A DNA stretch of 64,000 nucleotides from Nitrospinota bacterium (GTDB lineage Bacteria > 2-12-FULL-45-22 > JACOWJ01), in assembly GCA_016176845.1 (NCBI GenBank), contig JACOWJ010000025.1, positions 5,364 through 69,363 on the forward strand, written 5' to 3'. This document shows positions 415 through 9,110 of the stretch, in pieces. The notes beneath the pieces were generated by a model. It saw only the letters and a list, made by a program, of their open reading frames with translations. It had not been told where the DNA came from and did not search any database. Made by a program: the position numbers and the translations under genes. The first letter of the stretch is position 1. The number at the start of each line of letters is the position of its first letter.

Positions 415-430
415 TGGCACGTGTATTGCT
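415..430 (+). promoter_or_regulatory. sigma54 -24/-12 promoter
   Basis: TGGCAC-GTGTA-TTGCT matches TGGCAC-N5-TTGCW; follows an enhancer-binding protein gene. Confidence 0.75.
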
Positions 431-478
431 TTTATATTATTGATAACAGCTGGGAGCTCTCTCGCAAAGGGGGGCACG

Positions 479-778
479 ATGGCACAGGAGACATATTCTA
501 ACGGAAGGTCTTTGGATAGTACCCTGGCCTCCTTCGACGAGGCCAGGGATGCCCTCTTGATCACCGACCAGCACATGCCGGAGATGCAGGGGGCGGAGCT
601 GATCCGTACCCTCCAGCGGCTGTGCCCCTCCCTGCCGATGATCGCGATGACGGGAGCTGAAGTCGAAGGAGAGCTCCTGGCAGCTGGAGCCCGTGAAATC
701 CTCAAGAAACCTCTCGATATCCGTCAGATCGAGGAGGCGGTGGAGAGGGGCCTGAAGGGGAAGACCATAGAGGACTGA
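479..778 (+). CDS. Stand-alone receiver domain, N-terminally atypical or truncated
   Basis: LLITDQHMPEMQG..AMTG..KKPLD motifs present; beta1 acidic pocket not recognisable. Confidence 0.6.
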   Translation: MAQETYSNGRSLDSTLASFDEARDALLITDQHMPEMQGAELIRTLQRLCPSLPMIAMTGAEVEGELLAAGAREILKKPLDIRQIEEAVERGLKGKTIED

Positions 779-795
779 AGTATGGGGGTAGGAAG

Positions 796-1026
796 ATGAA
801 CTGCCCGTATTACGAGAAGGTCAACAAAGCAATGGCCCAGCGGGGCGTCCGGGGCTATTGCACCGGATATCCGACTCAGGGGATCATGGTTCCTTCCATC
901 ATGGAGGAGAAGAAATATTGCGCGAGAGACAACGGCTACCTTAAATGCCCGGTCTACCGCGCCAGGCAAGCGATGGGTCGAGAGGGTGGGGATGCGGAAG
1001 CGAACGTCTGCTACACTTTGCTTTAA
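796..1026 (+). CDS. Small 4-Cys protein (CPYY family, paralogue of 8838-9110)
   Basis: RBS upstream; shares the CPYY-x11-VRxYC..YP..MxPS..EKxYC..CPV pattern with the second copy. Confidence 0.75.
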   Translation: MNCPYYEKVNKAMAQRGVRGYCTGYPTQGIMVPSIMEEKKYCARDNGYLKCPVYRARQAMGREGGDAEANVCYTLL

Positions 1027-1220
1027 CTCTGCCCATTGAGCAGGGATCGGAAGTTTTCTTCCTGATAATTCTGAAGGTCACTTCCGACCGGGATGGAATC
1101 GGGGAGAATTAACCCGAAAATGTCTGCTCACCCCCCCTCAGGGGATAGGGAGCACCCTAACCCATTTTCATGGGCTTGGGTGCCTTAAAGCGGCATTGGG
1201 GGATTGAAAGGGAAGAGGCC

Positions 1221-2067
1221 ATGTTGGAGGATTACCCAAAGCATGCGGTGCTGAAAGATGAGACCGTGGTGACCCTTCGCCCCATGGTCCAGGAGATCAC
1301 CGAGCAGAAGCAGATCCAGGCCCAGATCCTGCAAGCCGGCAAGATGGCGGCCGTGGGCGAGCTGGCCGGACAGGTCGCCCACGAGGTCAACAACCCCATC
1401 GCCATCCTCGGCGCCAAGGCGCGGCTGCTTTTGTTGGATCACCGGGACGGCATGTCCGCGAAGACCGCCCAGGAACTGGCCAAGATCATCAACCTCTCCG
1501 ACCGGGTCGCCCGCATCGCCCAGGGGCTCCTTACCTACTGCCGCCCCTCTGCCGCCATGCGCACCCCTCTGGATGTCCGGATCCCGATTCGCAAGGCCCT
1601 GTCCATGGTGGAGCACCGCGCCAGGATGGCCGGAGTCCAGTTGGAGGAGCACCTCTCCGATCCGGTGCCCCTGATAAAAGCCAATGGCAACGAGATCGAG
1701 CAGGTCTTCTTGAACCTTTTCCTCAACGCCCTGGACGCCATGCCCCAGGGGGGGGCGGCTGGGGATCTCCACCCGTAGCGAGCCGAAGCGGTTTTCCGAC
1801 GGAAGGCCGGGGATCGCCGTCGTGGTGGAGGATACGGGGACCGGAATCCCTGAGGGGAACCGAGAGAAGATCTTCCAGCCCTTCTTCACCACGAAGGAGG
1901 AGGGTCGGGGGACCGGCCTGGGGCTTTCGATCTGCATGGGGCTCGTCCGGAGCCACGGGGGTGAGATCGAGGTGGAGAGCGAGCCGGGCCAGGGCACGCG
2001 CTTCACGATAAGGCTGCCCATGGAAGTCCCCGCGGCCGGCCAAGAGAACGGCCTGGCTAAATCGTAA
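1221..2067 (+). pseudogene. HisKA/HATPase histidine kinase, chimeric N-terminus, frameshifted at a G8 tract (1748-1755)
   Basis: H-box AHEVNNP and N-box [11 protein letters not shown] in ORF 1170-1778; DTGTGI, FFTTK and GTGLGL in ORF 1822-2067; removing one G joins them in frame. Confidence 0.85.
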
Positions 2068-2068
2068 C

Positions 2069-2193
2069 CATTTGTGTCAACTCAATACCCCGAGGGCGCG
2101 GGCGTCCCGCCCGCAAAGAGCGGCCAAGCCTGCCCCGGGCTTGATCCGGAGATGGCCGCGCTCCCAGCCTCTAACATTAAGTTGACACCCATG
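2069..2193 (+). mobile_element. MITE with CAT-ended TIRs and an internal REP-like GC hairpin (copy 1)
   Basis: CATTTGTGTCAACT...AGTTGACACCCATG; core GCGGGCGTCCCGCCCGC; degenerate 10-bp flanking repeat aaatcgtaac/aagtcgtaat. Confidence 0.75.
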
Positions 2194-7225: not shown

Positions 7226-7438
7226 CTCACGTCTCTTTACTTCCGAGATTATCACAAATAGAAGAATGTCTTTCGTGTGAAATCCGAAATATGGAAGCCG
7301 AAGGTGGCCTCCCAAAAATACATCCAACCGGAAGCTGGGGATGTAAATATTACCAAACCGGATGTCTGGGTGGCCATGGAACCGGGGGGACCCAAAAAAC
7401 CTAAGTACAACCCCACAGAATTCAGTGCTCAAAGGGGT

Positions 7439-7502
7439 GAGATTGCTTCGCTTCGCTCGCAATGACCTGATTTTGTCATTGCGAGCGAAGCGAAGCAATC
7501 TC
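7439..7502. repeat. REP-type perfect inverted repeat (possible terminator)
   Basis: GAGATTGCTTCGCTTCGCTCGCAATGAC, 8-nt loop, exact reverse complement. Confidence 0.9.
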
Positions 7503-7574
7503 TAACCGGGCACCCTTTTACGTGGAGTTGTACTAAGGGACTCTGGCGGCATGCCCTCGTGCCGGGTCCATTGC

Positions 7575-7590
7575 TGGCACGATTATTGCT
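7575..7590 (+). promoter_or_regulatory. sigma54 -24/-12 promoter
   Basis: TGGCAC-GATTA-TTGCT. Confidence 0.75.
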
Positions 7591-7655
7591 TTTTAAGGGA
7601 GTGTTGGTTTGGTCCGAATCATCCCCTTCAACCCTTTTCCTAGGAGGGAACGCGA

Positions 7656-8816
7656 TTGTTAGAGTACCTCGAGCCTGATCTCGTGCCCCCTGAGGATTTC
7701 AGCGATGGGGCATGGGAAATTGATCCAACCGATTGCGAAGAAGATCCTTTCGTAGCTATCGTGGCGACAGGGGCGAAAGCCGTCCGGAAGAAAGAAGCCC
7801 CCGAACCCACCCTGGCCACCTTCGATTCCTTGAGGAAGTATCTGGCCGAGATTCGCCATTTCTCCTCTCTCATCAAAGAGGAGGAGTTCAGGTTGGCCGT
7901 CCTTTACCAAGAAAGAAGGGAGCCCGAGGCGGCCCACCGGTTGGTGACCTCTCATCTCCTCCTGGTGGTCAAGATCGCCATGCGCTACCGTCAGGTTCAT
8001 AACAACCTCCAGGACCTGATCCAGGAGGGCAACATCGGCCTGATGGAGGCGATCAAGCGCTTCGATCCTTACCGGGGATTGCGCCTCTCGACCTATGCGG
8101 CCTGGTGGATTCGGGCCTATATCCTCAAGTTCATCCTGGACAATGGGAAGCTGGTGAAGGTGGGCACCTCCAACGCCCGCAGGAAGCTCTTCTACAACCT
8201 GAAGAAGGAGAAAGAGCGGCTGGAGGCGGAAGGGAACGGTTATGGCGCCAAGGCCCTGGCGGAGCGCCTTCACGTCAAAGAGGGCGATGTCATCGATCTG
8301 GACAAGTACCTCTCCAACGAGGATATCTCCCTGGATGCCCCTCTCGATGGGGAATCGAATCGAACCTATGCCGACCGCCTCCCCAGCTCCGATCCCCCTC
8401 CGGATGAGAGGCTGGAGGAGGAGGAGCTCGATAAGCTCTTCTGCGAGAAGATCCAGTGCTTTTCGGAGGCCATAGGCCCCCGGGAGAGACACATCCTGAA
8501 GCAGCGCTTGCTGGCCGAGACCCCGGTGACCTTGCAGGAGATCGGAGAGAAGTATGGGGTCAGCCGGGAGACGGTGCGGCAGACGGAGAAAAAGCTCCTG
8601 AAGAAGCTGCGAACCCATTTGGAGCGGGAGTTGCCCGAGTACCTGGCATCCCTTTGGGGAACGCTTTTTCTCGAGAAGGTCCAGGAAGGGAAGGGGCATT
8701 CTCGAAAGGAGCCCGGAGGGACGAAAACTTTTGCCGATTTTCCGGAAGAGGATTTCCGAATTTGCGTTGGAGGCTCTCTGGAAGTAGACGGCAACTTCCG
8801 ACAGGAAGGTCCTTAG
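7656..8816 (+). CDS. RpoH (sigma32)-like sigma70-family factor with C-terminal extension
   Basis: DLIQEGNIGLMEAIKRFDP..STYAAWWIRA, RpoH-box-like RRKLFYNLK, region 4 TLQEIGEKYGVSRETVRQ. Confidence 0.9.
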   Translation: MLEYLEPDLVPPEDFSDGAWEIDPTDCEEDPFVAIVATGAKAVRKKEAPEPTLATFDSLRKYLAEIRHFSSLIKEEEFRLAVLYQERREPEAAHRLVTSHLLLVVKIAMRYRQVHNNLQDLIQEGNIGLMEAIKRFDPYRGLRLSTYAAWWIRAYILKFILDNGKLVKVGTSNARRKLFYNLKKEKERLEAEGNGYGAKALAERLHVKEGDVIDLDKYLSNEDISLDAPLDGESNRTYADRLPSSDPPPDERLEEEELDKLFCEKIQCFSEAIGPRERHILKQRLLAETPVTLQEIGEKYGVSRETVRQTEKKLLKKLRTHLERELPEYLASLWGTLFLEKVQEGKGHSRKEPGGTKTFADFPEEDFRICVGGSLEVDGNFRQEGP

Positions 8817-8837
8817 GATCACAGGGAGGCTAGAAAG

Positions 8838-9110
8838 ATGAGATGTCCGTATTATAACCGGGTGGAGCAGCCTATGCGCAGAAACTGGGTGAGGGCCTAC
8901 TGTATTGCTTATCCTGAACTGATGATTCCTTCCGTTGGAGACGAGAAAACTTACTGCCAGACCCATCATCACATCCATTGCCCAGTTTTCGAGGTTTGCC
9001 AACCACGAGAGCAGAGCGCCTTTGAGCTGGCAGAAGAAGAGGTGCTCGTCGGAGAAGAAGAAGAGGTGCTCGTCGGAGAAGAAGAAGAGGTGCTCGTCGG
9101 AGAAGCATAA
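8838..9110 (+). CDS. Small 4-Cys protein (CPYY family) with acidic repeat tail
   Basis: Paralogous to 796-1026; tail (EEEVLVGE)x3. Confidence 0.75.
   Translation: MRCPYYNRVEQPMRRNWVRAYCIAYPELMIPSVGDEKTYCQTHHHIHCPVFEVCQPREQSAFELAEEEVLVGEEEEVLVGEEEEVLVGEA
9033..9104 (+). repeat. Three exact 24-bp tandem repeats (in-frame VNTR)
   Basis: GAAGAAGAGGTGCTCGTCGGAGAA x3. Confidence 0.95.

Follow-up and report, generated by a model that had tools for sequence, protein, structure and literature searches.

A conserved four-cysteine mini-protein domain at two sigma-54 transcription units of a Nitrospinota bacterium and in many other bacterial families

Sigma-54 circuits are usually described in terms of a sensor, an activator, and a promoter. 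The described systems closest to the protein domain reported here are the ZAS anti-sigma factors (RsrA, ChrR, and RslA, with the zf-HC2 domain), which are small, cytoplasmic, and cysteine-rich; the WhiB-like (Wbl) [4Fe-4S] proteins of Actinobacteria, with about 80 to 100 residues and four invariant cysteines, which act with the transcription machinery; DksA/TraR, where the four-cysteine finger of DksA is a known thiol switch; and the pairs PspA-PspF, HrpV-HrpS, and NifL-NifA, in which one partner acts back on an activator. The domain was encountered in a 64,000-nucleotide stretch, hereafter the window, of contig JACOWJ010000025.1 (positions 5,364 to 69,363, forward strand) from a Nitrospinota bacterium, assembly GCA_016176845.1. 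Two genes on the plus strand encode it: mini-1 (796 to 1026), for a protein of 76 residues with cysteines at positions 3, 22, 42, and 51, and mini-2 (8838 to 9110), for a four-cysteine protein of 90 residues with an acidic tail. Mini-1 and mini-2 are genuine genes, and the cytoplasmic domain that they encode, of about 55 residues, is undescribed. This domain family falls within a familiar functional kind, and is not to be filed under ZAS, Wbl, or DksA.

Alignment of mini-1 with mini-2 by BLASTP gives 24 identities over 58 positions (41%, E-value 5e-16), bearing out a preliminary description that had called the two paralogous from the DNA alone. The motif proposed there as common to both proteins also held overall, but two of its spacers needed correction: Y-P and M are separated by four residues in mini-1 and by two in mini-2 (three or four had been given), while the third and fourth cysteines are separated by eight and seven residues, respectively (six or seven had been given). 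Each gene has a ribosome-binding site, AGGA located 4 nt upstream of the ATG for mini-1 and GGGAGG for mini-2, and each follows its upstream neighbor closely, with a gap of 17 nt from the stop codon of a receiver gene to mini-1 and of 21 nt from the stop codon of an rpoH-like gene to mini-2. A strain with 97.7% identity, obtained from a different sample (locus L048), retains the gene order rpoH, mini-2, sppA, and its mini-2 core differs by three synonymous changes and one conservative V-to-I replacement. Three perfect tandem repeats of 24 nt (9031 to 9102, plus strand), specifying (E)EEEVLVG, code for the acidic tail of mini-2; L048 has two of these repeats, showing that copy number varies. 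Both reading frames are short and neither has an annotation or a name in any source, which could mean that they arose as open frames by chance in GC-rich DNA and resemble each other by accident. We assign that explanation almost no probability, and the conservation of the family already refutes it. The E-value between the two sequences, the dozens of homologs from many bacterial families with the same four invariant cysteines, the ribosome-binding sites, the mostly synonymous strain differences, and a confident AlphaFold2 (AF2) model all speak against it.

A profile made from the two sequences was searched exhaustively with HMMER against 1.84 billion cluster representatives, yielding 51 matches at E-values of 1e-3 or better, about 45 of which are small proteins with the same four cysteines (at the 50% cluster level). 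The family signature is C-P-[YF]-x(8-24)-C-x(16-19)-C-x(6-9)-C-P-x-[YF], together with a conserved [LM]-x-[VI]-P-[ST]-x2-E, and both window proteins contain all of the elements: C-P-[YF], [VI]-P-[ST]-x2-E between the second and third cysteines, and C-P-x-[YF]. Exactly four columns are invariant in an alignment of 60 sequences, and these are the four cysteines, each flanked by conserved aromatic residues; P33 and E37 are conserved at 90% or more. Spacing between the first two cysteines is 10 residues in a short form and 17 to 18 in a long form, with a maximum of 26, while the second and third are 16 to 19 residues apart, and the third and fourth 6 to 9, mostly 7.

No known family could be assigned in the preliminary description, and comparison with Pfam, NCBIfam, PHROGs, PADLOC, PDB sequences, and PDB folds leads to the same result. 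Mini-1 and mini-2 have no match in the first four of these; 41 family members searched against Pfam gave zero matches; the short forms match nothing in Pfam or NCBIfam; and a profile search of PDB sequences found nothing beyond noise at an E-value of about 0.8. Eight cluster representatives whose names were sought have none in any source, and the literature searched, including a paper on the sigma-54 regulome of D. vulgaris, makes no mention of such a protein. A word-index homolog search started from mini-1 alone returned only the query itself, a scan of JGI metagenomes with the clade A profile found no relatives, and a clade B scan of genome contigs found one distant locus in Anaerolineaceae. 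Some candidate resemblances were rejected. Weak NCBIfam matches, to a two-CW domain (E-value 0.079) and to Rmf/CrpP (E-value 0.14), were dismissed as noise; a match to DUF2180 belongs to a different small cysteine protein in L025, outside the family; and the HiPIP-like string G-Y-C-x2-Y is a partial coincidence, missing from members of the short form.

When run with the 60-sequence alignment, AF2 predicts a compact structure (pLDDT 81, pTM 0.66) with a beta-hairpin (residues 6-8 and 20-22) followed by helices at residues 35-42, 47-50, and 52-63. Foldseek searches of the PDB with two models gave a best E-value of 3.6 and no real neighbor, in a comparison that has little power at 60 residues; the models hint, weakly given their small size, at a fold not yet solved. 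The Wbl proteins offer the nearest analogy, that of a four-cysteine mini-protein sensing redox state and binding a sigma factor or regulator, but their pattern of C-x(14-22)-C-x2-C-x5-C with a basic C-terminal tail differs from the C-x(10-26)-C-x(16-19)-C-x(6-9)-C of the mini domain, no sequence or Pfam match joins the two, and their taxonomic ranges differ. The DksA/TraR finger has the form CxxC-x17-CxxC and follows a coiled coil, whereas the mini domain has no CxxC pairs and no match to PF01258. PspA, HrpV, and NifL are larger than the mini proteins, lack the four-cysteine signature, and show no homology to them. Ferredoxins, rubredoxins, and HiPIPs are likewise not reached by any Pfam, NCBIfam, PDB sequence, or Foldseek match. 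Although the mini domain resembles the four-cysteine switches of transcription (ZAS, Wbl, and the DksA finger), it lacks the motif that defines each of them and matches none of their models, and for that reason is not classed with any of them.

Each mini gene was proposed in the preliminary description to be the last of a unit that begins with a TGGCAC-N5-TTGCT promoter and includes a regulatory gene, and this arrangement is confirmed. Exact matches to the sigma-54 -24/-12 consensus lie on the plus strand at 415 to 430 (P1, TGGCACGTGTATTGCT) and at 7575 to 7590 (P2, TGGCACGATTATTGCT), and the extended core TGGCACGnnTATTGCTTTT is common to both. An enhancer shared by the regions upstream of P1 and P2 was looked for and none was found, the promoter core alone being in common, and no convincing intrinsic terminators were found. 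A third perfect sigma-54 promoter, TGGCACACAAATTGCT (58274 to 58289, plus strand), precedes the gene for an ammonium transporter (Amt) that begins at about 58365. The amtB promoter is a classical target of NtrC and sigma-54; this site serves as an internal positive control, and because of it, the motif very probably functions in the organism. The window has three strict sites, where shuffled sequences predict 0.04, and the full 1.53-Mb assembly has seven.

P1 lies 230 nt past the end of a gene for an NtrC-type sigma-54 activator, or bacterial enhancer-binding protein (bEBP). The open reading frame (ORF) for this protein extends into the window from L009:4159 on the contig and encodes a receiver, an AAA+ domain with GAFTGA, and a helix-turn-helix (HTH); its start lies 5' of the window, and its 3' end, with the Fis-type HTH, occupies positions 2 to 184 (plus strand), the final 60 codons. 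A sensor histidine kinase gene lies 5' of the bEBP gene, also outside the window. Downstream of P1 is the gene for an N-terminally truncated receiver (479 to 778, plus strand; 99 residues from an ATG at 479). The listed ORF begins at a TTG at 440, but this codon overlaps the expected transcription start, making ATG 479 the likely start. The receiver matches PF00072 (E-value 4e-12) over profile positions 30-111 only, with the first 29 or so missing; as read from its sequence, it keeps the phospho-Asp, T, and K positions and is without beta1/alpha1 and the acidic pair. Beyond mini-1 lies a histidine kinase remnant in two frames (1170 to 2067, plus strand), with its HisKA part at 1170-1778 and its HATPase end at 1822-2067. 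Window positions 1629-2047 form a 419-bp duplicate, at 94.5% identity, of the 3' end of the upstream kinase gene (L009 3735-4152), and the block is rearranged, as this copy shows: the duplicated HATPase segments bracket the bEBP gene, P1, the receiver gene, and mini-1. Each of the two kinase genes is broken across two frames, either as a pseudogene or through an assembly error.

P2 lies 65 nt upstream of the gene for an RpoH-family (sigma-32) sigma factor (7656 to 8816, plus strand; 386 residues), the regulatory gene of the second unit. Its product scores 266 bits against NF005143 (cut-off 241), with Sigma70_r2 and Sigma70_r4 matches, and 268 bits against the proteobacterial equivalog model TIGR02392, under the cut-off of 323; an RpoH-box-like segment, RKLFYNLKK, can be read in the sequence. 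The protein extends past the RpoH model by about 50 residues at the N-terminus and about 60 at the C-terminus. A convergent gene for an S49 peptidase (sppA) closes the unit. The MAG (metagenome-assembled genome) encodes five bEBPs, none of them adjoining P2.

The placement of mini-2 directly after rpoH, with its 21-nt gap and with synteny in a second strain, could indicate that mini-2 is an anti-sigma factor, soluble and redox-sensitive, for the presumably co-transcribed sigma-32. It would act as RsrA acts on SigR, kept in a sigma-binding form by the four-cysteine center until oxidation or metal loss frees the sigma factor. Mini-2 has the size of a soluble anti-sigma factor, along with four invariant cysteines and an acidic tail, and a distant member of the family from Anaerolineaceae shows an anti-sigma-like architecture in which a mini-like N-terminal domain is followed by a transmembrane (TM) segment and an extracytoplasmic LysM domain. 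A thiol or metal switch is plausible in the mini proteins as in ZAS. Even so, no H-x3-C-x2-C motif occurs in the 60 aligned members, and there is no match to zf-HC2 or any other Pfam model at E-values up to 1; the predicted beta-hairpin and three short helices differ from the helical bundle of ZAS proteins. A sigma factor gene stands beside a mini gene only for mini-2 and its strain variant, and at none of the other loci, about 50, that were examined; the pairing with RpoH was observed in this lineage only, and the family as a whole is not linked to sigma-70. An anti-sigma role would leave mini-1, and the family at large, unexplained, and we judge it distinctly improbable.

The phylum to which GTDB assigns the window genome contains only two species, and the other has no mini gene. 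Elsewhere, 20 of 400 other sampled genomes (5%), from many families, carry the domain in one copy each; with two copies, the window genome is unusual. For seven of these 20 unrelated carriers, a bEBP gene (Sigma54_activat/HTH_8) lies within 1.5 kb of the mini gene, mostly directly upstream and on the same strand. These carrier genomes encode 8 to 47 bEBPs each, or about 5.2 per Mb, giving a random spot a chance of about 2.4% of having such a neighbor, and the seven cases stand against about 0.5 expected (Poisson p about 1e-6). Sigma-54 sites are found just upstream of the mini gene in L031 (TGGCACGGCGTTTGCT), L033 (TGGCATAGATTATGCT), L039 (TGGCATAAAAACTGCT), L045 (TGGCACATCCCCTGCA), L018 (TGGCACGTTTATTGCC), and L019 (TGGTATCTATTTTGCT), and before the first gene of the operon in L038, L041, and L044. 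Strict or near-consensus -24/-12 sites positioned to drive the mini gene or its operon occur in loci from at least seven families. Within about 103 kb of foreign loci, strict TGGCAC-N5-TTGCW sites number four, all on the strand of the mini gene, compared with about 0.1 expected. The window layout of bEBP 3' end, sigma-54 promoter, and mini gene recurs in L018, which comes from a relative of the window lineage.

The family had been placed inside a sigma-54 regulon by the preliminary description, which proposed looking for promoters next to homologs. The link does reach beyond the window genome, as the bEBP neighbors and the promoters at many loci attest, but that placement was too narrow: some clades associated with glycogen, polyhydroxyalkanoate (PHA), HPF, radical-SAM, GcvH-like, or ComEC genes have no visible site. 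Membership of the family is not limited to a sigma-54 regulon.

The recurring order of bEBP gene, sigma-54 promoter, and mini gene, seen in the window and in L018, L031, L033, L039, and L038, recalls PspA-PspF, HrpV-HrpS, and NifL-NifA, and suggests feedback from the gene product to the activator. The domain might on this basis be a modulator of the neighboring bEBP, made from the promoter which that bEBP activates and binding to it, perhaps at its receiver domain, so as to tune or stop activation. An in-frame fusion in L018 of the domain to a receiver about 70% identical to that of the window bEBP would fit such a role, as would fusions to stand-alone receivers. However, a bEBP gene within 1.5 kb is missing from the majority of carriers, and no sigma-54 site is seen in the clades linked to DksA or to glycogen genes, so that we consider a feedback function of this kind to have a low probability.

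The preliminary description had also proposed that the small proteins are partners of regulators, and natural fusions to receiver and DksA domains agree with this. Receiver genes adjoin mini genes in L015, L016, L049, and L046, and fusions occur in both orders, receiver-mini in P0010 and P0060 and mini-receiver in P0011. Throughout one clade, the mini gene always follows a gene for a 136-residue DksA/TraR protein and precedes a Usp gene; the DksA gene is directly 5' of the mini gene in L010, L011, and L012. A DksA-mini fusion (P0055) matches PF01258 over its DksA part only, residues 88-122, and here the mini domain stands apart from DksA as an added domain and is no homolog of it. L010 has two mini paralogs, at about 1240-1444 and at 2672-2944, both on the plus strand and flanking the DksA gene; at the upstream one, the source annotation has a gene on the opposite strand.

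Several clades lie in metabolic surroundings. In glycogen operons of two lineages the mini gene comes directly before a GalT-like gene; in two genera it lies between two radical-SAM genes; phasin and PHA synthase genes are among its neighbors; and GcvH-like proteins of the lipoyl-carrier type are fused to the domain or encoded next after it in L031 (601-1710, minus strand), L035 (859-1704, minus strand), and L045. In L031, the GcvH-like fusion contains two additional C-x5-C-x2-C motifs, and both a bEBP gene and a perfect sigma-54 promoter precede it. An HPF-CSD fusion gene follows 10 nt 3' of the mini gene in one context, and further neighbors encode Hsp20, an EAL-CBS protein, multihaem cytochromes, and ComEC. 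The common theme of these neighborhoods is stress, starvation, storage, and dormancy, and only a part is visibly sigma-54-dependent. The radical-SAM neighbors raised the separate idea that the mini proteins are precursors of ribosomally synthesized and post-translationally modified peptides (RiPPs), but it was rejected, since only a single family has this context and since conservation and a predicted fold extend over the entire 55-residue core.

Such surroundings would also suit a small redox or metal protein with no regulatory duty, perhaps a carrier of Fe-S clusters or zinc, an electron carrier, or an accessory subunit of an enzyme, co-expressed with genes of stress, dormancy, and storage. 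Its position before GalT-like genes in two lineages, between radical-SAM genes in two genera, fused or next to GcvH-like genes, and before multihaem cytochromes favors this explanation, as do the conserved aromatic residues at each cysteine. The fusions to receivers and to DksA and the strong enrichment of bEBP neighbors are hard to reconcile with a mere carrier, and no similarity to the ferredoxin, rubredoxin, or HiPIP families is seen; we regard this explanation as unlikely.

We suggest instead that the domain is a four-cysteine thiol or metal switch module that partners the regulator encoded with it and is wired into sigma-54 circuits, a proposal to which we give an even chance. Because the four invariant cysteines are flanked by aromatic residues and proline in a small cytoplasmic fold, a metal-thiolate or Fe-S center seems likely, and the cysteines would hold zinc or an Fe-S cluster. 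The fusions to receiver and DksA domains suggest a module that acts with regulators through protein-protein contacts, and since it occurs at either end of its fusion partners, a portable sensor or switch is a better fit than a domain dedicated to output. In the window, a first unit downstream of the kinase and NtrC-type activator pair would be read from P1 through the truncated receiver gene to mini-1, and a second from P2 through the rpoH-like gene to mini-2. The domain would dock on the regulator encoded with it, the truncated receiver in the case of mini-1 and sigma-32 in the case of mini-2, and would couple redox or metal status to stress and starvation circuits under sigma-54 control.

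Several points weigh against this proposal. Metal binding is proposed from the four invariant cysteines, and since there are no CxxC knuckles, zinc, Fe-S, and disulfide chemistry are all possible. Unit 1 may be partly decayed, with a receiver that is without beta1/alpha1 and flanking kinase genes that are out of frame. The metabolic contexts that have no regulators (glycogen, PHA, radical-SAM, and GcvH-like) fit a purely regulatory role poorly. The rpoN gene is present in 19 of the 20 carriers but also in 74-83% of sampled genomes, making this a weak test of the link to sigma-54. A search with TIGR02395 did not find rpoN in the window MAG, which is 68% complete; the gene is present in the only relative genome of the same order.

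Some further features of the DNA were recorded. A near-consensus sigma-54 site, TGGTACGGAGATTGCT, at 4577-4592, lies about 145 nt upstream of the coding start of SpoVG (gene at about 4736-5017), and with it the 9-kb stretch that includes both mini genes may hold three sigma-54 units. A 714-residue ORF at 5081-7225 joins a triosephosphate isomerase domain (residues 10-264) through a Pro/Ser/Ala-rich linker to a divergent GAPDH-like C-terminal region, an unusual fusion of consecutive glycolytic enzymes. Upstream of P2, at 7438-7505, is a long perfect palindrome, GAGATTGCTTCGCTTCGCTCGCAATGAC...GTCATTGCGAGCGAAGCGAAGCAATCTC, similar in appearance to repetitive extragenic palindromes or miniature inverted-repeat transposable elements (REP/MITE-type); the word GAGATTGCTT from this palindrome recurs in the SpoVG promoter region. 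Elsewhere in the assembly, a strict sigma-54 site, TGGCACTTTCTTTGCT, occurs on the minus strand of contig C35 at about 30697, and about 100 nt further on is a 90-residue cysteine-rich ORF beginning MANIKRIPADALACCAYFDLRCDHAMC, which has no relation to the mini family.

A conserved mini-protein that has gone unannotated stands at the head or tail of sigma-54 units in many phyla, and its signature and hidden Markov model can be used to annotate a domain now left among unnamed or uncalled ORFs. A bolder view, which we think improbable, is that the domain is a third component of sigma-54 signaling across phyla, so far unrecognized: a small Fe-S or zinc redox sensor made from a sigma-54 promoter would bind the receivers of bEBPs or response regulators, and here sigma-32 as well, gating starvation, heat-shock, and dormancy responses by redox or metal state. 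If the proposed role is correct, the regulation of stress, storage, and dormancy would include an extra component, probably one that senses redox state or metals.

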